The position numbers and the translations under genes were made by a program. Below are positions 8,456 through 63,674 of a DNA stretch of 64,000 nucleotides, one piece after another. How positions within the stretch are numbered: position 1 is the stretch's first letter; every line of letters starts with the position of its first letter. Below the pieces are notes generated by a model. The model did no database searches. It saw nothing but the letters and a program-made list of their open reading frames with translations, and had not been told where the DNA came from. Source of the stretch: Candidatus Omnitrophota bacterium (GTDB lineage: Bacteria; CAIJMQ01); assembly GCA_018812925.1 (NCBI GenBank), contig JAHJCU010000008.1, forward strand, positions 70,744 through 134,743, given 5' to 3'.

Positions 8456-8531
8456 TGGTGGCGAGACCCAGAATCGAACTGGGGACGCCAGGATTTTCAG
8501 TCCTGCGCTCTACCGACTGAGCTATCTCGCC
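8456..8531 (-). tRNA. tRNA-Phe (GAA), CCA encoded
   Basis: Hand-folded cloverleaf: GGCGAGA acceptor, anticodon loop CTGAAAA, T-loop TTCGATT, 3' ACCA. Confidence 0.95.
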
Positions 8532-8568
8532 ATTTCTTTATTTGATGCTTACCATAAACCAAAAATCT

Positions 8569-8593
8569 CTGTCCGCTTTGCAAGCAGGCGGGG
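8569..8593. repeat. GC-rich palindromic element copy (CTGTCCG-CTTTGCAAG-CAGGCGGGG) between two tRNAs
   Basis: Matches the arms and loop of the copies at 16934 and 18059. Confidence 0.8.
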
Positions 8594-8633
8594 ATAACCA
8601 TTTGTCATTAAACGTCATTATATCAAATACTAG

Positions 8634-8707
8634 CGCGCCTGGCAGGAATCGAACCTGCAACCTACGGATTAGAAATCCGTTGCTCTATCCGATTGAGCTA
8701 CAGGCGC
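8634..8707 (-). tRNA. tRNA-Arg (TCT)
   Basis: Hand-folded cloverleaf: GCGCCTG acceptor, anticodon loop TTTCTAA, T-loop TTCGATT. CCA is not encoded. Confidence 0.93.
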
Positions 8708-10869: not shown

Positions 10870-10892
10870 TTTATACCTCCCCCTTTGTTCTT

Positions 10893-12956
10893 TCATTCCT
10901 TGGTTCTTCCGTTTTCTGTATTCTGTTCTCCGTTTTCTGTTGGCTGTTCCTTGTCTTCTGTATTCTGTGTTTTTTCAGACGGCAAATAAGAAGCAATCCA
11001 TCTGCATTGAGGATAGTTACTACATCCGTAGAATACCCTGCCTCTTTTATTTCTCATTTCTACTATTTCGCCGGAACAATTCTGATTTGGACACTTTACG
11101 CCGACTTTTTTCAATATTCGTTTTGTGTATCGGCACGTGGGGAAATTCAAACATGCTATAAACGGTCCGAATCTACCTTCTTTTATCATTAATTTCCCAT
11201 CGCATTCGGGGCATTTCTCGTCGGTAATTATTTCTCTTTCTTTTTTTATATTTTTCATATCCACCGATGCTTTATTCAAAACTGGTTCAAAAGACGTATA
11301 AAAATCTTTCACTATATCCGACCATTTTTTCTTGCCTTCTTCAACCTCATCGAGGCTTTGTTCCATTTCGGAAGTGAATTGTTCGTAAAATATTTTGGGG
11401 AAATTCTCAACAAGCAATTCAACCACAACTATACCAAGTTCCGAAGGATGAAGTGCACCTTTCACGCTTCTTATATAATCCCTGTCTTTAATAGTATTCA
11501 TTATCGGAGCATAAGTCGAAGGACGACCTATACCTTCTTCTTCCAATTTCCTGATAAGCGTTCCTTCACTGTAACGCTGAGGCGGTTGTGTAAATTTCTG
11601 CTCGAGATTAATATCTAATAAATTTACTTTTTCCTGTTCTTTTAAAATAGGCAACACATTTACTTCTTCCTCTTCTTTTTTAAAAAGAACTGTATAGCCA
11701 TCAAACTTTGTTTTTCTACTTTCGGTTGCAAATATATAATCTCCGCCTAATAGTTTTATAGTATTCACTTCTGTTATCTTTTGAGTCATTTGGGAACCTA
11801 AAAATCGGGTGTATATCAGTGTGTATATTTTTAATTGAAAAGGGTCTAAATATTCTTTTATTTTTTCAGGGGAAAGCTCAACATTCGTTGGGCGTATAGC
11901 TTCATGCGCTTCCTGAGCGCCCTTTTTTGCCTTGAATTTGGGGGGAGAAGAAGGAAGATATTCTTTGCCGAAATTTTTAAGTATCAATTCTCTCGCTTTA
12001 TCTTGAGCACTTTTACTAATATTAAAAGAATCTGTTCTCATGTAAGTAATAAGCCCCGTCAACTCATCTCCGACGTTAACACCTTCGTATAATTGCTGCG
12101 CTATTCTCATCGTCCTTTGAGCAGAAAATCTAAATATGCTGTGAGCTTGCTGTTGCAATGAACTTGTAATAAAAGGGGGAGGAGCATTTCTTTTTTCTTC
12201 TCTGGTAGTAATACTTTTTACAATAAAGTTTTGTTTTTCTATATCGGTTTTTATATCAAAAACTTCATCCTTAGGAAATTTTGTAATCTTTTTACCTTTA
12301 AATTCTTTAAGTTGAGAAGAAAATTCTTCATTGTTTTGCGTAGAAAATTTGCCAAGAACCAAATAATATTCTTCCGGAACAAATGCCTGTATTTCTTTTT
12401 CTCTATCCACAACGATTTTCAAAGCAACTGTTTGAACCCTACCCGCAGATAATCCTTTTCTTACTTTTTTCCACAACAAAGGTGAGATTTTATAACCTAC
12501 GAGTCGGTCCAGAACTCTCCTTGCCTTACCCGAATCAACTTTGTTTACATCTATTGCAGTAATATGTTCCAGTGATTCTTTGATAGCAGAAGAAGTAATT
12601 TCGTGAAACAAAATTCTGGAAATATTTTTATTAACAGGGCTTATTTCTTCAGCTAAATGGGCACAGATTGTTTCCCCTTCCCTATCAGCATCAGCCGCAA
12701 GAAGAACTTGTGAATATTTTTTAGCCTCGCTTTTTAGCTCTTTGAGGATTTTCTTTTTTCCTTTGATAACAGTATAAGTGGGTTCAAAATCATGCTCAAC
12801 ATCAACCCCTAATTTGCTATTCGGTAAATTTTTTATATGCCCCATGCTCGCGCTAACTTTATATCCTTTCCCAAGAAAAGATTGAATAGTTCGCGCCTTT
12901 GCAGGAGACTCAACAATTATAAGCGAATCTTTTATAAGCGACTTTTTCTTTGACAT
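10893..12956 (-). CDS. topA: DNA topoisomerase I with C-terminal zinc ribbons and a heptamer-encoded tail
   Basis: TOPRIM start LIIVESPAKARTI, active-site region ITYMRTDS, and Cys4 ribbons (CPECDG..C..C, CPNQNCSG). Confidence 0.95.
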   Translation of the reverse strand: MSKKKSLIKDSLIIVESPAKARTIQSFLGKGYKVSASMGHIKNLPNSKLGVDVEHDFEPTYTVIKGKKKILKELKSEAKKYSQVLLAADADREGETICAHLAEEISPVNKNISRILFHEITSSAIKESLEHITAIDVNKVDSGKARRVLDRLVGYKISPLLWKKVRKGLSAGRVQTVALKIVVDREKEIQAFVPEEYYLVLGKFSTQNNEEFSSQLKEFKGKKITKFPKDEVFDIKTDIEKQNFIVKSITTREEKRNAPPPFITSSLQQQAHSIFRFSAQRTMRIAQQLYEGVNVGDELTGLITYMRTDSFNISKSAQDKARELILKNFGKEYLPSSPPKFKAKKGAQEAHEAIRPTNVELSPEKIKEYLDPFQLKIYTLIYTRFLGSQMTQKITEVNTIKLLGGDYIFATESRKTKFDGYTVLFKKEEEEVNVLPILKEQEKVNLLDINLEQKFTQPPQRYSEGTLIRKLEEEGIGRPSTYAPIMNTIKDRDYIRSVKGALHPSELGIVVVELLVENFPKIFYEQFTSEMEQSLDEVEEGKKKWSDIVKDFYTSFEPVLNKASVDMKNIKKEREIITDEKCPECDGKLMIKEGRFGPFIACLNFPTCRYTKRILKKVGVKCPNQNCSGEIVEMRNKRGRVFYGCSNYPQCRWIASYLPSEKTQNTEDKEQPTENGEQNTENGRTKE
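10906..10975 (-). repeat. 10 tandem degenerate heptamers (sense ACAGAAN) encoding the topA C-terminal tail
   Basis: Plus strand reads cttccgt tttctgt attctgt tctccgt tttctgt tggctgt tccttgt cttctgt attctgt gtttttt. The encoded tail is KTQNTEDKEQPTENGEQNTENGRTKE. Confidence 0.85.
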
Positions 12957-16933: not shown

Positions 16934-16958
16934 CCCGCCTGCTTGCGAAGCGGGCAGG
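16934..16958. repeat. GC-rich palindromic element copy (CCCGCCTG-CTTGCGAAG-CGGGCAGG)
   Basis: Its reverse complement is nearly identical to the intragenic copy at 18059-18082. Confidence 0.85.
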
Positions 16959-16960
16959 AA

Positions 16961-17070
16961 GCCCGTATCGGTTAATTTACGTAACCCGTAACTCGTAATT
17001 GGTAATTTTTAAAATTACGGATTACGATTTACAGATTACCGATTACGAAAAAATGGGCATCGTAACCTTA
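16961..17070. repeat. GTAA/TTAC heptamer-periodic inverted array (long imperfect hairpin)
   Basis: cgtaacc cgtaact cgtaatt ggtaatt ttt aaaattac ggattac gatttac agattac cgattac. Confidence 0.8.
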
Positions 17071-17696: not shown

Positions 17697-17715
17697 GGCA
17701 ATCTATGAGATTGCC
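17697..17715. repeat. perfect 8-bp hairpin GGCAATCT-ATG-AGATTGCC
   Basis: Read directly. The stem resembles hairpin 3 of the 65-nt element. Confidence 0.7.
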
Positions 17716-17747
17716 TGTCCGCTTCTTGCAGAAACAAGCAGGCGGAC
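17714..17747. repeat. GC-rich palindromic element copy with a long loop (CCTGTCCG-N18-CAGGCGGAC)
   Basis: Arms match the family consensus with 1-2 changes. Confidence 0.7.
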
Positions 17748-17767
17748 TTCGTCGTTTTCACTCCTCG

Positions 17768-17832
17768 CCCCTAGAAATTGCGAATGCAATTTCAGGGACC
17801 AAAGTCCCGGAAATCCTATGGATTTCATGGGG
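17768..17832 (-). repeat. 65-nt three-hairpin element, copy 3 (divergent)
   Basis: Minus-strand read: CCCC AT [GAAATCC ATA GGATTTC] C [GGGAC TTTG GTCCC] T [GAAATTGC ATTC GCAATTTC] TA GGGG. Lies 46 nt after the uvrC stop. Confidence 0.8.
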
Positions 17833-17877
17833 CAATGACAAAAGAAGACAGGAATACCTATTTTGGGCTTTTGTTCG

Positions 17878-19590
17878 CTAATGAGAAGAATTCTGGACTT
17901 CTTTTTTCTTCAGTTTTCCATAATAAGAATGTGCAAATCTATGTGCTTCGTCACGGACACGCGCAAGAAAACGGAAAGATTCCATGCGAGGATTTAAGAT
18001 TATCATTCTGGAAGAATAAGATAAGTGAATTTTGTTCTCACCTCTTGACCCGTATAGACCTGCCCGCTTCGCAGCAGGCGGGAATCCATTTCTAACGGGT
18101 TTAGCTATTCCTACAATTGGCATATTCTCTATGCCTAACTCGTTGAAAACTTGTTTGGCAATGTTAACTTGTCCTTTACCTCCATCTACGAGGACTAAAT
18201 CAGGCAATTTAGTTTTTTCGTTAAGTATTCGCTTATATCTTCTTTCAATTATTTCCCCCATCATCATATAATCATCCGACGTATCAATGCTTTTAATTTT
18301 GAATTTTCTCCATTCATTTTTCTTGGGAGAACCCTTCTCAAAGACAACTACGCTTCCGACCGCATTCTTCCCCATTATATTTGAAATATCTATTCCTTCT
18401 ATTCTAAAAGGAACCGAAGGAAGATTTAATCTCTCTTTAAGGTCTGTAAGCATATTTATGGGTTCAGATTTTAATGAGAATCCCTCCATTAATTTATATT
18501 GCGCATTATCGCTTGCCATCTTGAGCAATCTCTTCTTATCACCCCTTTGGGGAACGGAAATCTTTACGGTTTTGCCTTTGGTTTTTTTCAGCCATTTTTC
18601 CAAAAGATTCTTTTCTTTCAGAATAACCGGAACAAATATTTCATCGGGAATACCTGCCCGACAATATTCAGCAGGCGGGAGAGAACTCAATGAATAATAT
18701 TGTTCTATGAAAGATAGAACAGCTTCTTCTATTTTAGAATCTATTATCACTATCAAGTTGAATTTTTCCTGCGCCGATAATTTCCCATTTCGCACCTTAA
18801 ATAAAACAATTAAAGCTTTATTTTTAGATCTCGCATAACCTATGAAATCCTGATTTTGTCCGTCTAATTTCGAAATTGTTTGAAGGGAAAACATTTTATG
18901 GATTGATTCTATTTGGTCTCTAAATTTTGCGGATTTTTCATACTCTTTAGATGCGCTCGCCTCATTCATTCTATTTTTAAGGTAAGAAAGCAACTTTTGG
19001 GTTTCCCCCGAAAGAAACATAGAAACATTTTCAATCATTTCCATATAATCTTCTTTTGAAACCTTACCCGTGCAGGGACCTACACATCTTGCAATATGAT
19101 AATTAAGACAGGGTTTGCCGTCTATTTTGGTTTTCTTACAAGTCTTAAAAATAAAAGTCTTTCGCAGCAGCAATAGAGTCTTTCTTAAAGATTTTGCATC
19201 GGTGTATGGACCAAAATATTTTGCTTTTCCATCCTCCAGGTCACGCGTTATATAAACCGTCGGAAACTGTTCTTCCCGAGCTATCTTTATATAAGGATAA
19301 CTTTTATCATCTCTCAACATTATGTTGTATCTGGGTTTGTGTTCTTTGATTAGATTGCATTCAAGTATCAATGCTTCAACTGCAGATTGAGTAATGAGGT
19401 AATCTATTGATACTGTTTTTTTTGTTAAGACAGCGTCCTTGCCGAAAAAATCGGGATTTTGAAAATGCGACTTTACTCTGTTTCTTATATTCCCTGCTTT
19501 GCCTATATAGAGATAATTGCCGTTTCTATCTTTGAAAATATAAACGCCGGCAGAAGTCGGAAGTGCGTTTACCTTTTCTCTAATTTCCAT
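17878..19590 (-). CDS. uvrC: excinuclease ABC subunit C (apparently lacks the C-terminal HhH2 domain)
   Basis: GIY-YIG N-terminus GVYIFKDRNGNYLYIGKAGNIRNRV, a UVR domain, and the endonuclease region LVDGGKGQ...RDEAHRFA. The ORF ends about 25 aa later. Confidence 0.9.
   Translation of the reverse strand: MEIREKVNALPTSAGVYIFKDRNGNYLYIGKAGNIRNRVKSHFQNPDFFGKDAVLTKKTVSIDYLITQSAVEALILECNLIKEHKPRYNIMLRDDKSYPYIKIAREEQFPTVYITRDLEDGKAKYFGPYTDAKSLRKTLLLLRKTFIFKTCKKTKIDGKPCLNYHIARCVGPCTGKVSKEDYMEMIENVSMFLSGETQKLLSYLKNRMNEASASKEYEKSAKFRDQIESIHKMFSLQTISKLDGQNQDFIGYARSKNKALIVLFKVRNGKLSAQEKFNLIVIIDSKIEEAVLSFIEQYYSLSSLPPAEYCRAGIPDEIFVPVILKEKNLLEKWLKKTKGKTVKISVPQRGDKKRLLKMASDNAQYKLMEGFSLKSEPINMLTDLKERLNLPSVPFRIEGIDISNIMGKNAVGSVVVFEKGSPKKNEWRKFKIKSIDTSDDYMMMGEIIERRYKRILNEKTKLPDLVLVDGGKGQVNIAKQVFNELGIENMPIVGIAKPVRNGFPPAAKRAGLYGSRGENKIHLSYSSRMIILNPRMESFRFLARVRDEAHRFAHSYYGKLKKKEVQNSSH
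18059..18082. repeat. GC-rich palindromic element inside uvrC, in-frame (encodes PPAAKRAG)
   Basis: cctgcccgcttcgcagcaggcggg. Coding strand reads CCG CCT GCT GCG AAG CGG GCA GGT. Confidence 0.85.
18653..18679. repeat. GC-rich palindromic element inside uvrC, in-frame (encodes PPAEYCRAG)
   Basis: cctgcccgacaatattcagcaggcggg. Coding strand reads CCG CCT GCT GAA TAT TGT CGG GCA GGT. Confidence 0.85.
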
Positions 19591-21196: not shown

Positions 21197-21347
21197 AGGG
21201 TTCGATTATTATGCTAACATATCTATTGTTCTGTCTCAATATATCATATATCCAGAAATTGTCTTTGACAAAGCCCCATTAGAAATAAAGCTATGACATT
21301 AAATCGCTTATGGAAAAATATAGTACAAATAAGAATTGAAAATCCCC

Positions 21348-21362
21348 AAATTTCTAACGGGG
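21348..21362 (+). promoter_or_regulatory. 15-mer AAATTTCTAACGGGG upstream of mtnA (identical 15-mer upstream of cysE)
   Basis: Exact match to the complement of 46610-46624. Lies 38 nt before the mtnA ATG. Confidence 0.4.
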
Positions 21363-24300: not shown

Positions 24301-24378
24301 TATCGTGATTGGTAACTGGTAAAGCGTAATTTTTTAAAATTACCATTTACGAATTACTATTTACGGATTACGGTTTTC
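24301..24378. repeat. GTAA/TTAC heptamer-periodic hairpin (the 'empty' version without the 65-nt element)
   Basis: ttggtaa ctggtaa agcgtaa tttttt aaaattac catttac gaattac tatttac ggattac. Confidence 0.85.
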
Positions 24379-24387
24379 ATAAAACAA

Positions 24388-25158: not shown

Positions 25159-25326
25159 CCGTAATTGGTAACTCGTAAAGCGCCCCGTGGAATCTAAAAG
25201 ATTCCCGGGACCAAAGTCCTTGAGATTGTTCATCAATCTCTAAGGGTAATTCGTAACTTTTTTTAATTACCAATTACCATTTACGGATTGCTGTTTACCA
25301 TTTTCGTAATTAGTAATTACGAAAAT
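25159..25326. repeat. GTAA/TTAC heptamer-periodic hairpin carrying the 65-nt element in its left arm
   Basis: cgtaattggtaactcgtaaagc [65 nt] gtaattcgtaac ttttttt aattaccaattaccatttacgg... Confidence 0.8.
25182..25246 (+). repeat. 65-nt three-hairpin element, copy 1
   Basis: GCCCC GT [GGAATCT AAA AGATTCC] C [GGGAC CAAA GTCC] TT [GAGATTG TTCAT CAATCTC] TAA GGG. Confidence 0.85.
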
Positions 25327-28568: not shown

Positions 28569-29012
28569 ATGAAATTAATATTAACTAAAGATGTAGAAAA
28601 CCTGGGTCAAATCGGTGATATAGTAAACGTAAAGGAGGGATATGCTCGTAATTATCTTATCCCTAAAAAGTTAGTTTTTGAAGCAACACCAGCAAACGAA
28701 AAAATCATACAAAAGGAAAAAATAAAAGCGGATAAGAGAAGAAAAGAAAATAGAAAAGCAATAGACGAACTGTGTGAAAAATTAGAAAAACTTTCTTTAA
28801 CTGCGCCTGTTCAGGTGGGAGAAAAAGATAAATTATACGGTTCTGTAACCACACAGGATATTTCGGACCTTTTGAAAAAAGAAGGCTTTGATATAGACAA
28901 AAGGAAAATAGAAATTTCCAATCCGATAAAAGCATTAGGTATATACAGCGTAAAAATCAAACTTGACCTTGAAGTTACTGCCACTACAAAAGTTTGGGTG
29001 GTGAAAATGTAA
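28569..29012 (+). CDS. rplI: 50S ribosomal protein L9
   Basis: MKLILTKDVENLGQIGDIVNVKEGYARNYLIP is the canonical bL9 N-terminus. Confidence 0.93.
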   Translation: MKLILTKDVENLGQIGDIVNVKEGYARNYLIPKKLVFEATPANEKIIQKEKIKADKRRKENRKAIDELCEKLEKLSLTAPVQVGEKDKLYGSVTTQDISDLLKKEGFDIDKRKIEISNPIKALGIYSVKIKLDLEVTATTKVWVVKM

Positions 29013-29013
29013 A

Positions 29014-29085
29014 TCGGTTTGCGGTATTCGGTTATCGGTTATCGCGAAAACCGACAACCGTTTTTTTCTTTTCCGATAACCATTA
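29014..29085. repeat. CGGTTAT/CGAAAAC heptamer-periodic hairpin, copy 1
   Basis: cggtttg cggtatt cggttat cggttat cg cgaaaa ccgacaaccg ... ccgataacc. Confidence 0.8.
29029..29067 (+). terminator. intrinsic terminator of rplI
   Basis: CGGTTATCGG - 12-nt loop - CCGACAACCG (9/10 bp) followed by TTTTTTT. Confidence 0.7.
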
Positions 29086-29973: not shown

Positions 29974-31050
29974 ATGAAAAAATTAGGTGTCTTGGCTGTA
30001 ATTATTGTTGCTATTATTGTTGTTCTGTTTTCTATAAAAAATTTTCGCAAGGATACAAAAGATGTTATTCCCAACGAGATAAATAAGCAGATAAATGAAG
30101 AATTATTAAACGCTTCAATTCGTGGGAATATAGAAACTGTTCAAACACTTCTCGATAAAGGAGCAGACGTAAATGCGAAAAATAATGGCGGCTATACTGC
30201 ATTATGGTGGGCTTCCTTTAACGGACACGCTGATATAGTGAAACTACTCATTGAAAATGGTGCAGATATCAATGTGAAAGCAAAAAAGGATGGTTGGACA
30301 GCATTAACTGTAGCTTCCTTTGATGGACATCTAGATATGGTAAAAGTGCTCGTCGAAAATGGGGCTGATATCAACGCGAAAGATAATGAACAAGCTACTG
30401 CACTAATACAAGCTTGCCGAAATGGAAAAATTAATATAGTTAAATTGCTGATTGAAAAGGGAGCGGATATTGATACAACAGACAATGAAGGTTATACCGC
30501 ATTAATGACAGCTTTCGAAAACGGATGGACCGACATAGCAAGCCTTCTTAAACAGGCAGGAGCAAACATGAAGATAGGCATAAAGGAAGAATTGTTGATA
30601 GCATTGAGAGAAGGAAATGTAGAAAACATCCTATCTCTTCTCGAAAAAGGAGCAGATGTGAATACAAGATATCATAGCGGCAGGACTGCATTAATGCAAA
30701 CATATCAAATTGAAGTAATTAAACTGCTTATTGATAAAGGGGTGGATGTCAACGCGAAAACAAATAACGGCAGTACTGCACTAATAGGAACTTCCATGAA
30801 TGGACAAAATGATATAGTAAAACTGCTTATTGAAAAAGGGGCAGACATTGATGCAATGAACAATAACGGCTATAGCGCGTTAATTATAGCTTCTTCAATG
30901 GGACATACCGATTTAGTTGAATTGCTTATTGATAAGGGCGCATATGTCAATGCAAAACCCAAGAATGGCTGGACTGCGTTAAAGTGGGCTTCCCAAGACG
31001 GACACGCAGATATAGTAGCACTACTTAAACAAGCAGGGGCAAAAGAATAA
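29974..31050 (+). CDS. membrane-anchored ankyrin-repeat protein (about 9-10 ANK repeats)
   Basis: N-terminal TM helix, then repeated G.TALM.A...GH.DIVKLLIEKGADVNAK units. Confidence 0.9.
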   Translation: MKKLGVLAVIIVAIIVVLFSIKNFRKDTKDVIPNEINKQINEELLNASIRGNIETVQTLLDKGADVNAKNNGGYTALWWASFNGHADIVKLLIENGADINVKAKKDGWTALTVASFDGHLDMVKVLVENGADINAKDNEQATALIQACRNGKINIVKLLIEKGADIDTTDNEGYTALMTAFENGWTDIASLLKQAGANMKIGIKEELLIALREGNVENILSLLEKGADVNTRYHSGRTALMQTYQIEVIKLLIDKGVDVNAKTNNGSTALIGTSMNGQNDIVKLLIEKGADIDAMNNNGYSALIIASSMGHTDLVELLIDKGAYVNAKPKNGWTALKWASQDGHADIVALLKQAGAKE

Positions 31051-34442: not shown

Positions 34443-35543
34443 ATGAAAAAATTAATTCTGCCCACGCACCAGTATCACCATTACCACAATGGCAAACGAT
34501 GTGGGGTTTCGCCACAATATAAAACAACACATAAAAAAACACTGTGTATCTTAAACCTTGTGGCTACACTTTTACTGCTTCCTATCATCCTATTAGGATT
34601 TGGATTCTCTAAAAAGACATATCTTCTTATGGGAACTTTTGTGGAAATAACTCTTCCGCAGAAAAACAACAAAGTCATCAATGAAACCTTAGAAGCAATG
34701 CATGCACTGGAAGATGAGCTAAGCATTTATAATAAGGAAAGCCAAATAAACCGCATAAATTCTCTGAAAAAAGACAACCTGCAGAAAACTTCTCCCGAAG
34801 TTTATGAAGTTATCCAAAAAGCCATTTATTTCAGTAAACTGACAAACGGCGCCTTTGACATAACGGTTTCCCCTCTTCTTAAACTCTGGGATTTTGAAGG
34901 AGGAGAATTAAAAGAAATACCATCACAGGAAAAAATAGACGAAGCGCTAAGAAATATCGGCTGGCAAAACCTAATATTTACTAAAGACGGGAAAATTGGT
35001 TTTGCAAAAGATAATATGAGCATAAACCTCGGCGGAATTGCAAAAGGGTATATTGTGGATAAGGCTATATCCTATTTAAATGCAAAAGGAATAAAATCAG
35101 CACTCATAAATGCGGGAGGAGATGTTTATTGTCTCGGCGAAAAAGAAAATGGGGAATCTTGGAATGTCGGCATACGTCATCCAAGAAAAAAGAAGGGAGT
35201 TATAGGAATATTAAAACTAAAAAATAAAGCAGTAGCCACTTCAGGCGATTACGAAAAATTTTTCACTTTGAAAGGAAAAAAGTTTTGTCATATAATTAAC
35301 CCTCAAACTGGCTATCCTGTAGATAGCGCCATAATTCAAGTCACAGTAGTTGCGGAAACTTGCATCGATGCAGACGCGTTGGCAACGGCTTTAATGGTTA
35401 TGGGAAAAGAAAAAGGAATAGAATTGATAGAAAAACTCGCCAATACCGAGGTCGTTATAATAGAGGAAAAGGAAGGAAAACTCGATATAAGTTATACTAA
35501 AGGGTTGGAAGAAATTATTGAAATAAACAAGGGTAATTGGTAA
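34443..35543 (+). CDS. apbE: FAD:protein FMN transferase (ApbE family)
   Basis: MGTFVEITL, GAFDITVSPL, GGIAKGY, SGDYEK and DALATA motifs. N-terminal TM/anchor. The last codons (GNW*) lie inside the GTAA repeat. Confidence 0.88.
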   Translation: MKKLILPTHQYHHYHNGKRCGVSPQYKTTHKKTLCILNLVATLLLLPIILLGFGFSKKTYLLMGTFVEITLPQKNNKVINETLEAMHALEDELSIYNKESQINRINSLKKDNLQKTSPEVYEVIQKAIYFSKLTNGAFDITVSPLLKLWDFEGGELKEIPSQEKIDEALRNIGWQNLIFTKDGKIGFAKDNMSINLGGIAKGYIVDKAISYLNAKGIKSALINAGGDVYCLGEKENGESWNVGIRHPRKKKGVIGILKLKNKAVATSGDYEKFFTLKGKKFCHIINPQTGYPVDSAIIQVTVVAETCIDADALATALMVMGKEKGIELIEKLANTEVVIIEEKEGKLDISYTKGLEEIIEINKGNW

Positions 35544-35738
35544 CTTGTAAATTGCCCCGTGGAATCTACAAGATTCCCGGGACCAAAGTCCTTGAGATTG
35601 CTCAGCAATCTCTAAGGGTAATCCGTAATTTTTCTATTGTTAGTTATTTGTTTATTACTATTTATGAATTACTGATTACTGTTTACGATTCTTGAATTAC
35701 CATTTACCAATTACTATTTACGCTTTACGATAAATACT
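35531..35738. repeat. GTAA/TTAC heptamer-periodic array carrying the 65-nt element
   Basis: gggtaattggtaacttgtaaatt [65 nt] gtaatccgtaattttt ... gaattac tgattac tgtttac gattctt gaattac catttac caattac tatttac gctttac. Confidence 0.8.
35554..35618 (+). repeat. 65-nt three-hairpin element, copy 2
   Basis: Differs from copy 1 at only three positions, all in or closing the hairpin loops. Lies 11 nt after the apbE stop. Confidence 0.85.
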
Positions 35739-37040
35739 ATGTTTAAATTACGTCCTTTTATAGGCGGTGTTCATCCGCCGGAAAACAAACATTTAAGTTG
35801 TGATAAAGAAATAATACCCATTCCCGCGCCTGAAATATTGTTTTTTCCTTTAAGCCAACATACAGGCGCACCGTGCCAGCCCGTAGTTCAAAAAGGCGAC
35901 AAAGTAAAAAGAGGAACCTTAATAGGAACTTGTGAAAAACTTATATCAAGCCCTATTCATTCGTCTGTTTCGGGAACTGTAAAATCTATAGAGAATAGTT
36001 CGCATCCCGTAATCGGAAGATTTCAATCCATTGTAATAGAAAACGATAAACAGGATTTAACCGAAGAATCTATTTCTCCTAAAAAAAACACCGAGAATCT
36101 TTCGGCAGATGAAATAATAAAAATCGTAAGAGATGCCGGCATAGTCGGACTCGGAGGCGCGGCATTTCCCACACACGTTAAGTTGTCCCCGCCAAAAGAA
36201 AAGGTTATCAAAACCTTCATAGCAAACGGTGCTGAATGCGAACCATATTTAACCTGCGACCAACGCCTTATGCAGGAAATGGGGAAAGAAATAGTCGAAG
36301 GCATCAAGTTAGTAAGAAAGATTCTAAACTCCGAAAGATGCATTATTGCAATAGAAAACAATAAACCTGACGCAATAGAACAGATAAAAGAATTAACTCG
36401 AAACGAGAATATAGAAGTAATAGCCATAAAAGTGAAATATCCTCAAGGCGGAGAAAAACAACTTATTAAGACGGTTTTAGGCAAAGAAGTCCCGTCGGGT
36501 GGACTACCTATGGATGTGGGTGTTGTAGTTCATAATGTCGGAACTCTGTTGGCTATTTACGAAGCTGTTAACTTTGGTAAACCATTATATGAAAGGGCAA
36601 TAACCGTAACAGGCGCAGTAAAAAATCCAGGCAATTATTTAGTTAGAATTGGAACACCCGTAAAAGATATTCTTGATTTCTGCCAAGTAGATTGGGATAA
36701 CATAGGTAAAATAATTTTAGGCGGGCCAATGATGGGCATATCCCAACAAGACATCCAAACTCCCATAATAAAAGGAACAAGCGGAATACTTGTCCAAACT
36801 AAAGACGAAATAACGCAAGACGAAGAGTTTTCGTGCATAAGATGCGCAAAATGCATAGAAGTTTGCCCCGCATATCTTCTTCCCACACAGATTGCAAAAG
36901 TGGTAAAAGCCGAAAAATGGGAAAGATTAAGCCAGTTACATATAAAAGATTGTATAGAATGCGGTTGCTGCACTTATGTATGTCCTTCCAAAATCCCCCT
37001 AGTTCAATATATTAAATTAGGAAAAATCAAGACAAAATAA
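35739..37040 (+). CDS. RnfC-like electron transport subunit (SLBB domain plus two 4Fe-4S motifs)
   Basis: GGVHPPENK start, GLGGAAFPTHVK, CIRCAKCIEVCP and CIECGCCTYVCPS. No other rnf genes are adjacent. Confidence 0.82.
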   Translation: MFKLRPFIGGVHPPENKHLSCDKEIIPIPAPEILFFPLSQHTGAPCQPVVQKGDKVKRGTLIGTCEKLISSPIHSSVSGTVKSIENSSHPVIGRFQSIVIENDKQDLTEESISPKKNTENLSADEIIKIVRDAGIVGLGGAAFPTHVKLSPPKEKVIKTFIANGAECEPYLTCDQRLMQEMGKEIVEGIKLVRKILNSERCIIAIENNKPDAIEQIKELTRNENIEVIAIKVKYPQGGEKQLIKTVLGKEVPSGGLPMDVGVVVHNVGTLLAIYEAVNFGKPLYERAITVTGAVKNPGNYLVRIGTPVKDILDFCQVDWDNIGKIILGGPMMGISQQDIQTPIIKGTSGILVQTKDEITQDEEFSCIRCAKCIEVCPAYLLPTQIAKVVKAEKWERLSQLHIKDCIECGCCTYVCPSKIPLVQYIKLGKIKTK

Positions 37041-37202: not shown

Positions 37203-38345
37203 ATGAAGAATAAAACGGACACCAAATTCATTAAAGAGGCATTGGCTCTCGCAGTAAAAGCCGAAGGGCTCACGTCCCCCAATCCTTTGGTCGGCGCTGT
37301 TATCGTAAAGGGGAACAAAATTATCGGAAGAGGTTATCATAAAAGAGCAGGTTCTAAGCACGCTGAAATCCTTGCCCTTGAATCAGCAGGAAAGCCTGCC
37401 CACCAGCCCGCTACGAAGCTGGCAGGCAACCGAAAGGCAGGCGGGAAAACAAAAGGAGCTACTCTGTATATCAACCTTGAGCCATGCGCTCATTACGGTA
37501 AAACACCGCCCTGCGCTCCCGAAATAATAAAAGCAGGTATAAAAAGAGTTGTAATAGCTATGCCGGACCCAAATCCTTTGGTCAATGGTAAGGGGATAAA
37601 GAAACTTAAATCCGAAGGGATAGATGTACAAGTCGGTATCCTTGAACAGGATGCTAGAAAAATAAACGAAACATATATCAAATATATGACTAAAAAAATG
37701 CCGTTTGTAGTTTTGAAATGGGCTATGAGCTTAGACGGTAAAATAGCCACTCGTAAAGGCAATTCAAAATGGATTTCAGGGAAGGCTTCCAGAGAATTCA
37801 CACAAAAATTAAGAGGTAAATTCGATGCGGTTCTAATAGGGATAGAAACACTTCTTAAAGATAACCCTCAACTTAACACTCACGGTTTGGAAATAAAAGA
37901 ACCAAAAAGAATAATTATTGACAGTAAAGGAAGAATCCCTTTGGATTGCAATCTGTTAAAAACTAAAGGTGGACAGATTATAATTACCACAACAGATAAA
38001 ATAAGCAAAAAGAAAATAAGAGATTTGAAGGAAAAAGGAGCAGAGATTATAGTTATTTCTTCAAAAGAAGGCAGAGTCGACTTAAAGAAACTTATGATAG
38101 AATTAGCCAAACGAGAAATTACATCTATATTGGTTGAAGGCGGCGGAACAATAAATGCTTCATTTATAGAAAATGCCTTGGCAGATAAATTTGTGGCATT
38201 TTTATCTCCTATGATAATCGGCGGTAAAAACGCAATTTCCCCTGTAGAAGGAAAAGGAATAGAAAAAATAGCCAATGCTGTAAGAATCCGCGACTTATCT
38301 ATAAGGAAAATGGGAGAAGATGTAGTAATGGAAGGATATTTATAA
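37203..38345 (+). CDS. ribD: bifunctional riboflavin biosynthesis deaminase/reductase
   Basis: HAEILAL ... LEPCAHYGKTPPC zinc motif and a C-terminal reductase domain. Carries an about 17-20 aa insert between the two halves of the deaminase motif. Confidence 0.92.
   Translation: MKNKTDTKFIKEALALAVKAEGLTSPNPLVGAVIVKGNKIIGRGYHKRAGSKHAEILALESAGKPAHQPATKLAGNRKAGGKTKGATLYINLEPCAHYGKTPPCAPEIIKAGIKRVVIAMPDPNPLVNGKGIKKLKSEGIDVQVGILEQDARKINETYIKYMTKKMPFVVLKWAMSLDGKIATRKGNSKWISGKASREFTQKLRGKFDAVLIGIETLLKDNPQLNTHGLEIKEPKRIIIDSKGRIPLDCNLLKTKGGQIIITTTDKISKKKIRDLKEKGAEIIVISSKEGRVDLKKLMIELAKREITSILVEGGGTINASFIENALADKFVAFLSPMIIGGKNAISPVEGKGIEKIANAVRIRDLSIRKMGEDVVMEGYL
37395..37445. repeat. nested GC-rich palindromic elements inside ribD, in-frame (51 nt)
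   Basis: cctgccca ccag [cccgctacgaagctggcagg] caaccgaaagg caggcggg, encoding PAHQPATKLAGNRKAGG. Confidence 0.8.
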
Positions 38346-38360
38346 ATCGTCAGAAAAATA

Positions 38361-38424
38361 ACGGTTATAGGTTATCGGTTATCGTAAAAAAACGAAAACC
38401 GAATACCGAAAACCGCTAACCGAT
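38361..38424. repeat. CGGTTAT/CGAAAAC heptamer-periodic hairpin, copy 2 (ribD-ribE spacer)
   Basis: cggttat aggttat cggttat cg taaaaaaa cgaaaac cgaatac cgaaaac cgctaac cg. Confidence 0.8.
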
Positions 38425-38434
38425 TAGTTGAAAC

Positions 38435-46608: not shown

Positions 46609-46712
46609 CCCCCGTTAGAAATTTAAAAAACGCTAAAATAATTATTAACCAGATAAGCACCCATTGTTCTGCATAGCATCTTAAAAGCAAGTCATTAAAT
46701 TTCTTTACGGGG
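46609..46712. repeat. long-range inverted repeat CCCCCGTTAGAAATTT ... AAATTTCTTTACGGGG (72-nt spacer) in the cysE leader
   Basis: About 14 bp of pairing with one mismatch and one bulge. The arms belong to the CCCCGTTAGAA family. Confidence 0.75.
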
Positions 46713-47044: not shown

Positions 47045-47063
47045 ATTTCACCTCCTTTAAAAC

Positions 47064-47130
47064 TCGGTGTTCGGTTATCGTAAATAATTTTTAACGCAAA
47101 CCGAAAACCGTTTTATCTTTACGCTAACCG
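47064..47130. repeat. CGGTTAT/CGAAAAC heptamer-periodic hairpin, copy 3
   Basis: tcggtgt tcggttat cg taaataatttttaa cgcaaac cgaaaac cg ... cgctaac cg. Confidence 0.75.
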
Positions 47131-47134
47131 TCTT

Positions 47135-48415
47135 TTATTTATATATCAGATACTTCTCTCTTTTTTCATTAAATTCGTTTAATTCTATTTCCCATTTTTT
47201 TATAATTTCGTCAACATTTTTACCTTCTCTTATTTCATCTAATATATAATCTACCCCCCAGATTTCATTAAAATCTTTGGACGGAATATATTTGCCGGGA
47301 TATAATGATTCCAATGAAGTTAAAATCTCCAATGCCGTTTTAACAGGCTTAAAAGTTCTTTTGTCAGTAAGCACTAACCTTATGCCTCCAAGCTCCTTAT
47401 CTTTAAACGAAAAATAAAACGGTTTAAACCAGTAGGGCTGGAATTTTACACCGGGAATATTCTTAGCATTTAATTTTTCCGCAAATTTATTCGGGTCAAT
47501 CCATTCGCTGCCAATCAACTCAAACGGGAGAGTATATCCCACACCGTTACACAAATTAGCGCTACCGATAGTTCCTGTCGTAGCGTATAGAAAAGCGGAC
47601 TCAACTGTGGGAATATGCGGAGAAGTTGGAACCCAATCAAGACTGGTATCATCCCAAATCATATTTCTCGTCCAGACTTTCATAGGCACAACAGTCAGTT
47701 TAAGTTCAATTTTATATTCTTCTCTTATAAATTTCGCCATCTCGCCTATAGTCATACCATGAACCAAAGGAATATCGAACAAACCAATGAAACTTTTATG
47801 CTCTTCTTTTATTATGGGTCCTTCTATATTAAACCCGCCCAAGGGATTTGGCCTATCTAAAACCACAAATTCCTTTCCATATTTTGCGGCTGATTCCATA
47901 GCATAAAACAATGTTGAAATATAAGTATATGTTCTGGCGCCTATATCCTGAATGTCAAAAAGTAAAACATCTATTTCGGATAACATCTCTTCGGTAGGGC
48001 AACGGGTCTTTCCATAAATTGAATATACCGGCAGTTTTGTTTTTTCATCTACAATTTTACTTACATGTTTTCCGGCTAATACTTCGCCTCTTATACCGTG
48101 TTCGGGAGCAAAAAGAGCAACAAGATTGAAGGCAGGATTTTCATAAAGAATATCGGTTGTTGATTTTAAATTTGAATCTACGCCCGTGGGATTGGTTATA
48201 AGTCCTAATCTTTTATTTTTGAGAATTTCCACATAGCCTGTGTCTTCCTTCAACACTTCTATGCCTAATTTTACCCCGTTAGAAGTTTTCAACACAATTT
48301 CTTTAGTATCATTCAAACTTTCCGTATTACTTCTAACGGGGCAAAAAACAGAATTAACGAATAGAAAAAAGGGCATAATCGCAATTACAATGAAGAGTCG
48401 TCTTGATAAACGCAT
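47135..48415 (-). CDS. DUF1343 family protein (exo-beta-N-acetylmuramidase NamZ-like), secreted
   Basis: Signal peptide, then KRLGLITNPTGVD, FAPEHGIRG and FDIQDIGARTYTY motifs. Confidence 0.85.
   Translation of the reverse strand: MRLSRRLFIVIAIMPFFLFVNSVFCPVRSNTESLNDTKEIVLKTSNGVKLGIEVLKEDTGYVEILKNKRLGLITNPTGVDSNLKSTTDILYENPAFNLVALFAPEHGIRGEVLAGKHVSKIVDEKTKLPVYSIYGKTRCPTEEMLSEIDVLLFDIQDIGARTYTYISTLFYAMESAAKYGKEFVVLDRPNPLGGFNIEGPIIKEEHKSFIGLFDIPLVHGMTIGEMAKFIREEYKIELKLTVVPMKVWTRNMIWDDTSLDWVPTSPHIPTVESAFLYATTGTIGSANLCNGVGYTLPFELIGSEWIDPNKFAEKLNAKNIPGVKFQPYWFKPFYFSFKDKELGGIRLVLTDKRTFKPVKTALEILTSLESLYPGKYIPSKDFNEIWGVDYILDEIREGKNVDEIIKKWEIELNEFNEKREKYLIYK
48274..48341. repeat. perfect 13-bp inverted repeat CCCCGTTAGAAGT - 42 nt - ACTTCTAACGGGG inside the NamZ-like CDS
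   Basis: Read directly. Encodes CPVRSN...KTSNGV between the signal peptide and the conserved domain. Confidence 0.85.
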
Positions 48416-48485: not shown

Positions 48486-49037
48486 ATGTCAAATATAATT
48501 TTTTATACTTTCCTTGACTCATTTTTAGGAACAATAGGGCTCGCTTCGTCTTCTTCGGGCGTGGTATATGTGGATATGGGAATAAAAAAAAGAGCTTTTT
48601 TATGTAAACTAAAGCAAAAATTCCCGACCTGTAAACTAATAAAATCGGAAAAGAAAAACTCTAAAGCGATATGTGAATTAAACTCTTATCTGAAAGGAAA
48701 TATGAAATCGTTTGAAAGTAAGCTGGATTTAAAAGGCCCGCCCAAATCATGTCGGGCAGGTCCTCCAAAATCTCGGCGGGCAGGCACGCCTTTTCAGATT
48801 AAAGTATGGAATTGTTTAAGAAAAATTCCTTACGGTAAAATGTATTCATATAAATTTATTGCCTGTAAAATAGCAACATGCTCCCATTCGCGCGCGGTCG
48901 GCAATGCTGTCGCTAAAAATCCTGTTGCGATATTTATTCCCTGTCATAGAGTAATCAATTCCAACGGGGATTTGGGGAATTATGGCCCCGGCAAGAACTT
49001 CAAGAAAATGTTATTAAAGATTGAAAAAGCAATATAA
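48486..49037 (+). CDS. ogt: methylated-DNA-protein-cysteine methyltransferase
   Basis: TPFQIKVW, IPYGKMYSY, and active site IPCHRVI. Confidence 0.88.
   Translation: MSNIIFYTFLDSFLGTIGLASSSSGVVYVDMGIKKRAFLCKLKQKFPTCKLIKSEKKNSKAICELNSYLKGNMKSFESKLDLKGPPKSCRAGPPKSRRAGTPFQIKVWNCLRKIPYGKMYSYKFIACKIATCSHSRAVGNAVAKNPVAIFIPCHRVINSNGDLGNYGPGKNFKKMLLKIEKAI
48737..48784. repeat. two tandem GC-rich palindromic elements inside ogt, in-frame (48 nt, PPKSCRAG PPKSRRAG)
   Basis: cccgcccaaatcatgtcgggcagg tcctccaaaatctcggcgggcagg. Splits the conserved G-TPFQ junction. Confidence 0.85.
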
Positions 49038-61945: not shown

Positions 61946-62218
61946 ATGAAGAAACGCACCGGTAAATATTACGTTTATATTGTTAAATGTCAGAAAGGGA
62001 CATATTACATCGGTTATACAAATGATATTAAAAATCGGCTTAAACTACATAACAGGGGCCTTGGCGCTAGATACTTAAGAGGTAAATCGCCTATAGAATT
62101 AGTCTATGTTAAAAAATATAAGTATTATAAGAGTGCGATTAATAAAGAAATATCACTTAAAAAACTAACAAGGAAACAGAAAGAGGAATTGATTAAAACT
62201 TATGAAAAAACAAAATAG
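61946..62218 (+). CDS. GIY-YIG nuclease domain protein (UPF0213-like)
   Basis: YYVYIVKCQKGTYYIGYTNDIKNRLKLHN. Confidence 0.85.
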   Translation: MKKRTGKYYVYIVKCQKGTYYIGYTNDIKNRLKLHNRGLGARYLRGKSPIELVYVKKYKYYKSAINKEISLKKLTRKQKEELIKTYEKTK

Positions 62219-63674
62219 TAAGTTATCCCCCCTTGATTCTGCTCATTGCATTCGCAAAATCAAAACAGGGGGGACGGCACCGAAAGTTTTCATTCAAACT
62301 TTCGGGTGCCAGATGAATAAATACGACTCAGAGATTATGAAGTCGCTTCTCTTACAAGAAGGATATGAATTTACCGACAATTGGCAAAAGGCAGATGTAA
62401 TACTGGTTAATACCTGTAGTGTAAGACAACATGCGGAAGAAAGGGTATATGCGCATTTATGGAAATGGAGCAGATATAAGCAAGAATCAAAACCCAATTT
62501 GATAATCGGTATATGCGGATGTATGGCGCAGAAAGAAGGAATAAATATTCTAAACAAAATACCTCATTTAAATCTTGTATGCGGAACTTACAGTATTCCT
62601 AAAATTCATGAATTTGTAAGGGATTTACTTAAAACCGGCGGCAGGCGCATTGAAACTTCAGAAGATTACACTGATTTCCCTGCGCCTATTTATGAGATAA
62701 GAGACAGCAAAATTTCTGCGTGGGTGGCAATTATGAGGGGATGTAATAACTATTGCGCCTATTGTGTCGTGCCGTATGTCAGAGGTAAAGAAATAAGCCG
62801 TCCTGTAGAAGAAATAGAAACGGAAATCAAGGAACTTGCCCGCAAAGGCATAAAAGAAGTAACGCTTTTGGGGCAGAATGTTAACTCATACGCATCTCAG
62901 AAGACAGAAAACAGAAGACAGAGGACAGAAAAAAATAAAAATGATTTTGCACACTTGCTGAAAAGAATAAATGACATAAAGGGGATTGAACGGATAAGAT
63001 TCACAACTTCGCATCCGAAAGACATGTCTATCGTTACTATTGAAGCTATAAGAGATTTGCCAAAAGTTTGCGAGCATATTCATCTGGCATTACAGTCTGG
63101 TTCCGACAGGATTTTGAAACTGATGAATAGAAAATATACAAGGAGCCAGTATAAAGAGCTTGTTGACAGAATCAGAGCGACTATTCCAGATGTAAGCATT
63201 ACTACCGACATAATGGTTGGATTTCCTACCGAAACCAAAGATGACTTTATGGATACTTATAATCTTGTCAAAGAAATAGGATTTGATGCGTCTTATATAT
63301 TCAAATATTCGACAAGACCCGGAACAAAAGCCGCCGATATGGAAGATGATATACCTGAAGAAATAAAAAAAGAACGACTCAACAAGCTTCTTTCTCTTCA
63401 AAAAAGAATAGTACAGAAGAAAAACGAAAAATTAATCGGTAAAGAAGTTGAAATCCTCGTTGAGGGAATTAATAAAAGAGGAAGTAAATTGTTAAGTGAA
63501 ACCACGTGCATTTCCGAACCCGACGGAGTTCGGAAATGTTACGTGGGGAAGACTCGTAATTTCAAGTATGTCTCTTTCCAAAGCGATAAAAACTTAATCG
63601 GAAAACTGGTAAAAGTGAAGGTTGTAAAAGTAAGAGGTGGGTTGTTTGAGGGAATTTTAGTTGACAAAAGTTGA
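62202..63674 (+). CDS. miaB: tRNA-i6A37 methylthiotransferase
   Basis: FIQTFGCQMN, radical SAM CNNYCAYCVVP, and a TRAM domain C-terminus. Confidence 0.93.
   Translation: MKKQNSKLSPLDSAHCIRKIKTGGTAPKVFIQTFGCQMNKYDSEIMKSLLLQEGYEFTDNWQKADVILVNTCSVRQHAEERVYAHLWKWSRYKQESKPNLIIGICGCMAQKEGINILNKIPHLNLVCGTYSIPKIHEFVRDLLKTGGRRIETSEDYTDFPAPIYEIRDSKISAWVAIMRGCNNYCAYCVVPYVRGKEISRPVEEIETEIKELARKGIKEVTLLGQNVNSYASQKTENRRQRTEKNKNDFAHLLKRINDIKGIERIRFTTSHPKDMSIVTIEAIRDLPKVCEHIHLALQSGSDRILKLMNRKYTRSQYKELVDRIRATIPDVSITTDIMVGFPTETKDDFMDTYNLVKEIGFDASYIFKYSTRPGTKAADMEDDIPEEIKKERLNKLLSLQKRIVQKKNEKLIGKEVEILVEGINKRGSKLLSETTCISEPDGVRKCYVGKTRNFKYVSFQSDKNLIGKLVKVKVVKVRGGLFEGILVDKS
62227..62273. repeat. GC-clamped inverted repeat CCCCCCTTGATT - 19 nt - AATCAA(aaca)GGGGGG in the miaB N-terminal extension
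   Basis: Read directly. Encodes part of SPLDSAHCIRKIKTGG, upstream of the conserved FGCQMN start region. Confidence 0.75.
62898..62932 (+). repeat. five tandem heptamers (CAGAAGA CAGAAAA CAGAAGA CAGAGGA CAGAAAA) inside miaB
   Basis: Same ACAGAAN word as the topA tail. Encodes QKTENRRQRTEK. Confidence 0.85.

Follow-up and report, generated by a model that had tools for sequence, protein, structure and literature searches.

In the genome of a Candidatus Omnitrophota bacterium, the ogt gene for O6-alkylguanine-DNA alkyltransferase carries a GC-rich, in-frame block of 48 nt. The block was analyzed within a stretch of 64,000 nt from contig JAHJCU010000008.1 (hereafter, the window); the nearest named relatives of the source organism are metagenome-assembled genomes (MAGs) titled Candidatus Ratteibacteria. 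The evidence makes it likely that the block represents two tandem, partly decayed copies of a miniature repeat that resembles the repetitive extragenic palindromes (REPs), is dispersed and inserts in frame.

The block occupies positions 48737-48784 (cccgcccaaatcatgtcgggcagg followed by tcctccaaaatctcggcgggcagg) and is translated as PPKSCRAG-PPKSRRAG. In an alignment with the Ogt protein of M. tuberculosis, the only long gap comprises exactly 16 residues and falls between LDL(K/R) and GT(P/D)FQ. The ogt product matches the Pfam family DNA_binding_1 (PF01035) with 101.5 bits over profile positions 1-80 of 81, and the active-site PCHR motif is kept in frame, as had been proposed from the sequence alone in an earlier note on this DNA. 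The insert is an exact 16-codon addition to an otherwise intact ogt gene and is made of two 24-nt units with arms of the form CCCGCC...CGGGCAGG; since the G+C content of the window is 33-40%, the block is conspicuous in its composition. The two units (a and b) are arranged head to tail and are identical at 18 of 24 positions. Unit a folds only weakly (-3.8 kcal/mol), and unit b, whose left arm has decayed to TCCTCC, does not form a hairpin (-0.2 kcal/mol). The exact 183-aa Ogt protein was found on 5 contigs from several sources (NCBI, JGI, Logan and ENA), which rules out an artefact of a single assembly. The earlier note had asked whether the insert is a surface loop. In the AlphaFold model of Ogt, which has a mean predicted local distance difference test score (pLDDT) of 85.4, residues 84-100 form a low-confidence coil (10-residue block means of 65 and 51) that includes the insert and connects the N-terminal domain with the helix of residues 102-112, so that the copy is predicted to be located in a flexible linker between two Ogt domains.

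The same arms recur in the window. The six additional sites listed in the earlier note (8569, 16934, 17714, 18059, 18653 and 37395) are all real units, and its assignments to the uvrC and ribD genes were correct (Table 1). The units at 16934, 18059 and 18653 (named U1, U2 and U3) are complete, and those at 8569 and 17714 carry one or two arm substitutions. Altogether, there are 8-9 units in the window versus approximately 0 expected. The left-arm octamer CCGCCTGC occurs 8 times versus 0.43 expected, and the pattern CCCGCC-N4-24-CGGGCAGG occurs 4 times versus 0.00 expected. The more degenerate pattern CCYGYCCG-N7-20-CRGGCGGR, for which the earlier note had proposed a genome-wide comparison with a shuffled control, was found 4 times in the window compared with 0.0 in 200 dinucleotide-preserving shuffles. 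GC-rich 22-mers are only mildly enriched (37 versus 25.5), indicating that the signal lies in the motif and not in the composition.

The family has the consensus 5'-CCCGCC(TGC)-loop-(GC)GGGCAGG-3' and consists of GC-rich imperfect hairpins of 22-33 nt with a stem of 6-9 bp and a bulged or unpaired ...CAGG end. When folded as single-stranded DNA, the 24-nt core represented by U2 forms a stem of 9 bp that contains a bulged A and is capped by a GCGA loop (-7.1 kcal/mol). In a sub-family found elsewhere, CCCGCC-loop-GGCGGG-CAGG, the 6-bp stem is perfect and the CAGG after it is unpaired. The folds of both sub-families point to a hairpin with a CAGG foot as the constant feature, and on the opposite strand of a unit 5'-CCTG precedes the hairpin, as in tagged REPs. 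Comparison of the copies indicates that the arms are under sequence constraint, including the conserved mismatch or bulge. The loops of the ogt units have no other occurrence in the window. Templating of unit loops from the flanking DNA (AAATTT-type matches) was considered and dropped, as chance similarity of AT-rich DNA accounts for these matches. A full-text literature search for the sequence of the repeat gave no match. The Rfam search at the gathering threshold returned four tRNAs only, and at permissive E-values around U1 it returned only chance-level matches, the best of them to CRISPR-DR28 (E = 0.88).

Among the relatives of Ogt, the number of units varies between zero, one and two. The 81% identical protein P0001 has no unit, P0002 and P0003 have a single unit each, and the window has two. 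The single unit of P0002 has the same DNA as unit a, that of P0003 is CCCGCCAAAAACACGGCGGGCAGG, and unit b is absent from all relatives found. Twelve other aligned Ogt relatives (at most 58% identity) contain no unit: the 16 residues are lineage-specific, as expected. The repeat family itself is not confined to this lineage, since an identical 24-mer is present in multiple copies in unrelated phyla (see below). The Ogt tree has the topology (((window,P0001),P0002),P0003) with bootstrap values of 1.0 and 0.9. The simplest history would include the gain of one unit in the common ancestor of the four sampled lineages, the addition or duplication of a second unit in the lineage of the window, and a precise loss of the unit in its closest relative, P0001. 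Unit a in the window and in the related sequence L002 is identical at 24 of 24 positions, whereas the gene outside the unit is 75% identical, with 63% identity at its third codon positions, which suggests that the unit is either constrained or refreshed at the DNA level.

Similar presence/absence variation, which the earlier note had proposed to look for in related genomes, is observed in uvrC. Unit U3 is missing in every UvrC relative, including the 90% and 87% identical proteins, and its site is empty in L006, L007 and L008. Alignment of the empty site TCTCTTATTCCC (TCTCT|TATTCCC) with the filled site (TCTCT[27 nt]TATTCCC) reveals no target duplication. Unit U2 is hosted by an element of a second inverted-repeat family, element B, which L006 has without U2 and L007 lacks. 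In L008, the same element B carries a different family unit, CCCGCCTGCCAAATTTTGGCGGGCAGG, located 6 nt from the U2 site and in the same frame. In addition, uvrC has a reversed unit at codon 118 in L006 and a variant unit at codon 262 in L007. The spacer between the uvrC and nitroreductase genes, which contains U5, is 264 nt long in the window versus 9 nt in L008; the corresponding spacer of L006 is interrupted by a run of N and offers no readable empty site. The UvrC proteins of the source organism and of its eight closest aligned relatives end after the RNase H-like endonuclease domain and are without the C-terminal double helix-hairpin-helix domain, (HhH)2, which is retained in more distant relatives (P0129 onward).

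In ribD, two nested units form a 51-nt insert of 17 aa that coincides with a gap of exactly 17 residues relative to RibD of B. subtilis. This insert is common only to the window and to proteins that are 92-93% identical, and other RibD proteins possess family units at two further positions. For example, in ribD of L222 an outer CCCGCC...GGCGGG unit holds the exact 24-mer core in its loop, and ribD of L223 has a reversed 33-nt unit. Two nested, reversed units are present in the der (engA) gene of L184. In a 14-kb comparison with the syntenic, approximately 92% identical L210, hairpin inserts that preserve the frame were seen in three genes: one of 93 nt in an amino-acid kinase gene, one of 33 nt in apbE and one of 27 nt in ribD. 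Orthologous units, as in ogt and ribD, differ by point substitutions. The copies at further positions of uvrC, ribD, der and apbE represent independent insertions of the family. Insertion and loss of mini-hairpins is thus a routine source of indels in this clade. Outside the coding regions, U4 lies in the 101-nt spacer between the tRNA-Phe and tRNA-Arg genes (window 8456-8707, minus strand). A family copy between two tRNA-like sequences also occurs in the relative L167, and this similar tRNA-hairpin-tRNA layout suggests that the U4 copy is old and possibly exapted.

All intragenic inserts have lengths that are multiples of three (24, 27, 33, 48, 51 or 93 nt), and the intergenic units are of 24, 25 or 33 nt. 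The observation of the earlier note that the ogt and uvrC units share one frame, read as PP..RAG, is borne out by their translations (Table 1) and extends to other genes. Seven independent forward insertions were counted (U2, U3, those in L008 and L007, the ogt site, the ribD inner unit and that in L222), and all of them read xxC CCG CCT ... CGG GCA GGx; the chance that all seven share the frame of the first one is (1/3)^6 = 0.0014. Reversed intragenic units read PAR..AGG or ..QAG. The copies within open reading frames (ORFs) contain no stop codon, and their Pro/Ala/Gly/Arg-rich frame can be called benign. Selection would remove the ORF copies that fail these conditions of length, frame and absence of stops.

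Genome and metagenome scans were conducted with near-full-length patterns only. The pattern CCGCCTGCT-N0-2-GCRAAGCGGRCAG, scanned over one genome per species, identified 81 loci, with an estimated chance expectation of less than one match. The identical core CCCGCCTGCTGCGAAGCGGGCAGG is repeated in a Bacteroidia MAG (~20 loci, 38% G+C), a Saprospiraceae MAG (~12 loci, some of them in tandem arrays), an unclassified MAG (~11 loci, 50-56% G+C) and a MAG titled Deinococcus sp. (~8 loci, ~60% G+C), and it is likewise multi-copy in other Bacteroidota, with titles including Chitinophagales and Cyclobacteriaceae, as well as in the two Ratteibacteria-like MAGs. The flanks of the core are specific for each genome and are repeated within it. 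In these genomes, the core is located in the center of repeats that resemble miniature inverted-repeat transposable elements (MITEs), in tandem arrays whose units differ in their loops, or where two heptamer tandem arrays meet; in the Saprospiraceae and 'Deinococcus' MAGs it is a passenger inside the larger MITE-like repeats. The ogt-type unit (CCCGCC-MAAAWCAYGK-CGGGCAGG) was identified in non-coding regions of five GC-rich soil contigs, between (GGCGAGT)n heptamers.

Heptamers are also abundant in the window, whose spacers are densely filled with degenerate tandem arrays of heptamers (TTACGNA, CGGTTAT, TTCTGTN and others). Such arrays are located at 16986-17050, 24304-24382, 25245-25309, 35633-35739 and 29011-29064, as well as at 47061-47114, 38393-38425, 10884-10971 and 62898-62939, and at many loci among L129-L221. 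In other phyla, the hairpin marks the exact point where two different heptamer arrays meet, and the heptamers next to it are AT-rich in AT-rich genomes and of the (GGCGAGT)n type in GC-rich genomes. The lag-7 self-match of the 35-nt flanks is 0.338 versus 0.26 at random positions.

Seven of eight units share one orientation relative to local transcription, as described in the earlier note. This holds within the window and does not extend to a general rule, because orientation relative to neighboring genes is unbiased across genomes (24 antisense and 14 sense copies downstream of genes; 5 sense and 3 antisense copies inside genes). GC skew and gene orientation switch jointly along the window, from negative skew and minus-strand genes up to ~20 kb to positive skew and plus-strand genes at ~26-44 kb, which is compatible with a replication origin near 20-24 kb. 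Since the two switch together, the orientation of hairpins in the window is confounded with the directions of transcription and replication.

Table 1. Units of the repeat family, their host genes and the associated element B in the window (positions are those of the 64,000-nt stretch).
Feature	Position	Strand	Sequence	Description
U4	8568..8592	-	CCCGCCTGCTTGCAAAGCGGACAGA	between tRNA-Phe and tRNA-Arg
U1	16934..16958	+	CCCGCCTGCTTGCGAAGCGGGCAGG	25 nt, intergenic; downstream of MatE gene, heptamer repeats on flanks
U5	17714..17746	-	TCCGCCTGCTTGTTTCTGCAAGAAGCGGACAGG	33 nt, extended stem; spacer between convergent uvrC and nitroreductase genes
uvrC	17878..19590	-		570 aa; hosts U2, U3 and element B
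Element B in uvrC	18043..18099	-		second inverted-repeat family; 33-nt in-frame insert hosting U2
U2 in uvrC	18059..18082	-	CCCGCCTGCTGCGAAGCGGGCAGG	24 nt, family core; reads PPAAKRAG; in loop of element B
U3 in uvrC	18653..18679	-	CCCGCCTGCTGAATATTGTCGGGCAGG	27 nt; reads PPAEYCRAG
ribD	37203..38345	+		380 aa; hosts nested unit pair
ribD outer unit	37395..37445	-	CCCGCCTGCCTTTCGGTTG / TGGGCAGG	27 nt, split by inner unit; sequence on - strand
ribD inner unit	37403..37426	+	CCAGCCCGCTACGAAGCTGGCAGG	24 nt; reads QPATKLAG; in loop of outer unit
ogt	48486..49037	+		O6-alkylguanine-DNA alkyltransferase, 183 aa; insert host, PCHR active site intact
ogt unit a	48737..48760	+	CCCGCCCAAATCATGTCGGGCAGG	24 nt; reads PPKSCRAG; weak hairpin
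ogt unit b	48761..48784	+	TCCTCCAAAATCTCGGCGGGCAGG	24 nt; reads PPKSRRAG; left arm decayed

Two other repeat families accompany these units. Element B has arms CCCGTTAGAAAT / ATTTCTAACGGG and interiors of 3-63 nt; in uvrC it takes the form CCCGTTAGAAAT...ATTTCTAACGAGG, with TCTA(A/T)ACG(A)GG plus TCAAGA, and its 27-nt form folds with -7.1 kcal/mol (z = -5.7). In addition to the copy in uvrC (18043-18099, minus strand), element B occurs in the window at 21275-21361, 48275-48340 and 46611-46622 and in L210 at ~2316-2408; its copies include one in the 5' part of the NamZ-like gene and one in the 93-nt in-frame insert of the amino-acid kinase gene of a relative. Element C, of ~65 nt, comprises three consecutive small hairpins within CCCC...GGGG and was found in the window at 25161-25261, 35533-35633 and 17767-17836 (minus strand), in L210 at 9915-9981, and in L140 and L163. 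Its copies vary by paired, stem-preserving changes, and in relatives it adjoins hairpins of the family described here (family A). Element C is either a structured RNA or a composite mini-repeat. Among other genes in the window, a stand-alone ORF for a 90-aa GIY-YIG nuclease domain (61946-62218) overlaps the start of a radical-SAM (MiaB-like) gene. A gene of 99-nt (33-aa) repeats, ankyrin-like in look, occupies 29974-31050, and its counterpart region in L210 (2756-4147) has two methyltransferase genes instead. Between ribH and nusB, L210 contains a PemK toxin pair that is absent from the window.

New copies of the family are exact insertions without target-site duplication. They are located in spacers, between tRNA genes, beside or inside the loops of other palindromes (as tandem and nested units) and in ORFs, and the arrangement of the copies indicates that the family favors landing beside or inside existing hairpins. 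REPs are thought to be mobilized on single-stranded hairpins by HUH enzymes of the REP-associated tyrosine transposase (RAYT)/IS200 type (PMC3733652, PMC6006769, PMC3116915). By this model, the copies would be made in trans by an enzyme that recognizes the folded hairpin on single-stranded DNA, and a RAYT/IS200-type HUH tyrosine transposase would be the candidate. The precise loss in P0001 may then have occurred by excision by such an enzyme, or by slippage between the flanking AGGC repeats.

Several observations weigh against a mobile, REP-like repeat as the source of the ogt block. No ORF with the HUH...Y motif was found in a screen of the window, the 81 core-bearing genome loci and further loci of the analysis. 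Clustering of the ORFs that flank the cores revealed no recurring family, only ABC transporters, PlsY and response regulators, and no transposase was present among the genes called on the source contig and the syntenic relative (about half of the window) or among eight Pfam-scanned ORFs. Since the fraction of each genome covered is small, this absence is weak evidence. The GTAG/CGTC tag of REPs is lacking, and every sub-family ends in ...CAGG-3' / 5'-CCTG.... The loops differ so widely that copy-and-paste from a single master is insufficient and several sub-families must exist. No common target is evident; the sole pattern is that 4 of 5 clean sites have a T directly 3' of the insertion (CTCT|T, AATT|T, GAAA|T and AATA|T). 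The density of units is uneven, with 5 of the 8-9 units within 8.5-18.7 kb, and no further unit was found in the flanking 19 kb when the window was extended by 10 kb per side along the source contig. A repeat of this kind does not by itself account for an identical 24-mer in different phyla. Finally, ogt unit b, which is no longer palindromic, may have arisen by tandem duplication in place instead of by a second insertion.

An alternative is that the hairpin is a selected cis-element, i.e., a DNA or RNA signal of a protein-binding, RNA-processing or stability, or uptake type that is retained where it is useful and is adaptive in repair genes. Of the three genes invaded in the window, two function in repair (P ~0.03, estimated from coding lengths), which echoes the repair-gene bias reported for REPs (PMC3733652). 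The conservation of unit a beyond the level of synonymous sites agrees with this alternative, as does the counterpart of U4 between tRNA-like sequences in a relative with a UvrC only 72% identical. However, ribD, der, apbE and the amino-acid kinase gene are invaded as well, and units are gained and lost between genomes that are 87-93% identical, lie in both orientations without transcription bias, nest in each other and in MITE-like repeats, and have no Rfam match. We consider a selected signal improbable as an explanation of the family; individual copies may have been exapted.

It is quite unlikely that the ogt segment is of local origin, that is, a lineage-specific loop produced by slippage or tandem duplication of native codons, whose likeness to the other sites merely reflects GC-rich Pro/Arg/Ala/Gly codons. 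The head-to-tail arrangement and 18/24 identity of the two ogt units are what a duplication leaves, unit b is unfolded, and the ogt loops are not seen elsewhere in the window. This scenario is contradicted by the agreement of arms, spacing and reading frame with the units in uvrC and the spacers, by the ogt-type unit in the non-coding heptamer arrays of unrelated GC-rich soil contigs, and by the conservation of unit a above the synonymous sites of its host gene; a duplication may explain unit b, not unit a. An assembly or binning artefact or contamination, in which chimeric joins or foreign reads entered an AT-rich MAG, is hardly credible: all data come from metagenome assemblies, and the sharing of an identical 24-mer among unrelated MAGs might point to a common contaminant, but the exact Ogt protein was recovered from several sources, no insert shifts the frame of any gene examined, point substitutions separate orthologous units, and each genome has its own flanks around the 24-mer, which recur within it.

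In-frame insertion of short palindromes into genes has been described previously. Di Nocera, De Gregorio and Rocco (2013) reported REPs of 20-40 bp located entirely within ORFs of several species, many of them in uvrA, uvrB and other excision-repair (UvrABCD) genes, recBCD and polA (PMC3733652), and Quentin et al. (2018) described REPs that lie in frame within the RAYT genes of Cyanobacteria, Bacteroidetes and other phyla (PMC6006769). This behavior is thus already known. The earlier note had likened the ogt block to the Rickettsia palindromic elements (RPEs) and called these the only well-known precedent; the empty and filled sites in relatives support the in-frame colonization that it proposed, and the two REP studies show that RPEs are not the sole precedent.

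The family resembles the REPs of PMC3733652 in being composed of 20-40-nt GC-rich imperfect palindromes with a short conserved motif at one foot, in occurring as singletons, tandem clusters and dimers that are mostly intergenic with some in-frame copies in ORFs, and in the existence of several families per genome, some of them common to different species. It differs from the GTAG/CGTC REPs in the CAGG/CCTG foot, in that no RAYT was found, in frequent nesting in the loops of other repeats and in the identical 24-mer across phyla; its hosts are an AT-rich candidate phylum and Bacteroidota, whereas those of the GTAG/CGTC REPs are Proteobacteria. CGTC-type REPs have no known transposase, and the short rickettsial RPE-4 and RPE-6 are CGTC REPs (PMC3733652). 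The REPs of RAYT genes (TnpA_REP subclass 2.4, PMC6006769) have a similar range, including Bacteroidetes and scattered phyla; their feet are of the GT[AG]G type ('long' or 'double foot'), and they lie beside or within the gene for their own transposase, a gene that was not seen here. In size and fold, the units agree with REPs in the broad sense, being GC-rich imperfect palindromes of 22-33 nt with decayed copies, such as ogt unit b, that are unfolded. Without a GTAG/CGTC tag and with no RAYT found, they are classed here as a repeat of the REP kind that is not a member of a described family.

Like RPEs (Ogata et al. 2000, as cited in PMC3184786 and PMC3733652), the units are palindromes in frame in conserved genes of an AT-rich genome, and RPEs are tolerated as they encode surface peptides, a further likeness. 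RPE-1-type elements of ~105-146 bp are 4-6 times longer and show no sequence similarity to the family, which shares only the in-frame insertion with RPEs, its units being of 22-33 nt and its host related to Ratteibacteria. Elements derived from IS200/IS605 insert 3' of a fixed tetra- or pentanucleotide with a strand bias to the lagging-strand template; the lack of target duplication fits them, and the clean sites have no fixed target. The units are not MITEs, which derive from an IS, have terminal inverted repeats and target-site duplications and are typically longer than 50 bp, U3 being inserted without target duplication; and they are not DNA uptake sequences (DUS/USS), species-specific motifs of 9-12 nt that build up by substitution, since they are insertions relative to orthologues and their sequence is common to several phyla.

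Very short GC-rich palindromes in an AT-rich genome are also known as the GC clusters of yeast mitochondria, and 18-bp palindromic repeats with coding potential were reportedly found in Methanocaldococcus jannaschii by Suyama, Lathe and Bork in 2005. Some of the repeats of M. jannaschii and of the yeast mitochondrial clusters lie in coding sequence, in frame; their hosts are archaeal or organellar, and their sequences are unrelated to the family. In Nostoc, small dispersed repeats (SDRs) are said, following Elhai and co-workers in 2008, to be mobile repeats of 21-27 nt that are nested or in tandem in heptamer-rich genomes, and to our knowledge their mobilizing enzyme has not been identified. 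The SDRs differ from the family in sequence and have been reported only in Nostocaceae (PMC5861425, PMC3116915).

Compared with these systems, several features of the family seem new: its CAGG/CCTG foot, its host clade, the dense occurrence of nested and polymorphic copies in frame, a core that is identical across phyla, and the association with heptamer arrays. A wider interpretation is possible, if doubtful, in which the CCCGCC...GGGCAGG hairpin would define an uncatalogued super-family of 'CAGG/CCTG-tagged REPs' that moves without a linked transposase gene. Judged by the titles of the records, it would extend over Ratteibacteria, Bacteroidota, a 'Deinococcus' MAG, an unclassified MAG and GC-rich soil bacteria, by horizontal spread or through a conserved host enzyme across phyla; it would be mechanistically coupled to heptamer arrays and, in Ratteibacteria, turn over so rapidly that it is a major source of indels in housekeeping proteins.

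Few repeats enter essential genes in frame, and the family described here provides a clear case from a candidate phylum, in which empty, single, double and nested states are all readable at base resolution. The filter on survival is directly visible in the lengths, which are multiples of three, in the single frame that is tolerated in each orientation, and in the linker location. The same 24-mer across phyla without a linked transposase offers a handle on what moves RAYT-less REP-like hairpins, and its position next to heptamers a handle on the origin of bacterial heptamer arrays. The inserts inflate apparent protein divergence and can mislead gene calling and alignment in MAGs, and their insertion and loss are frequent enough to tell apart genomes that are ~90% identical.

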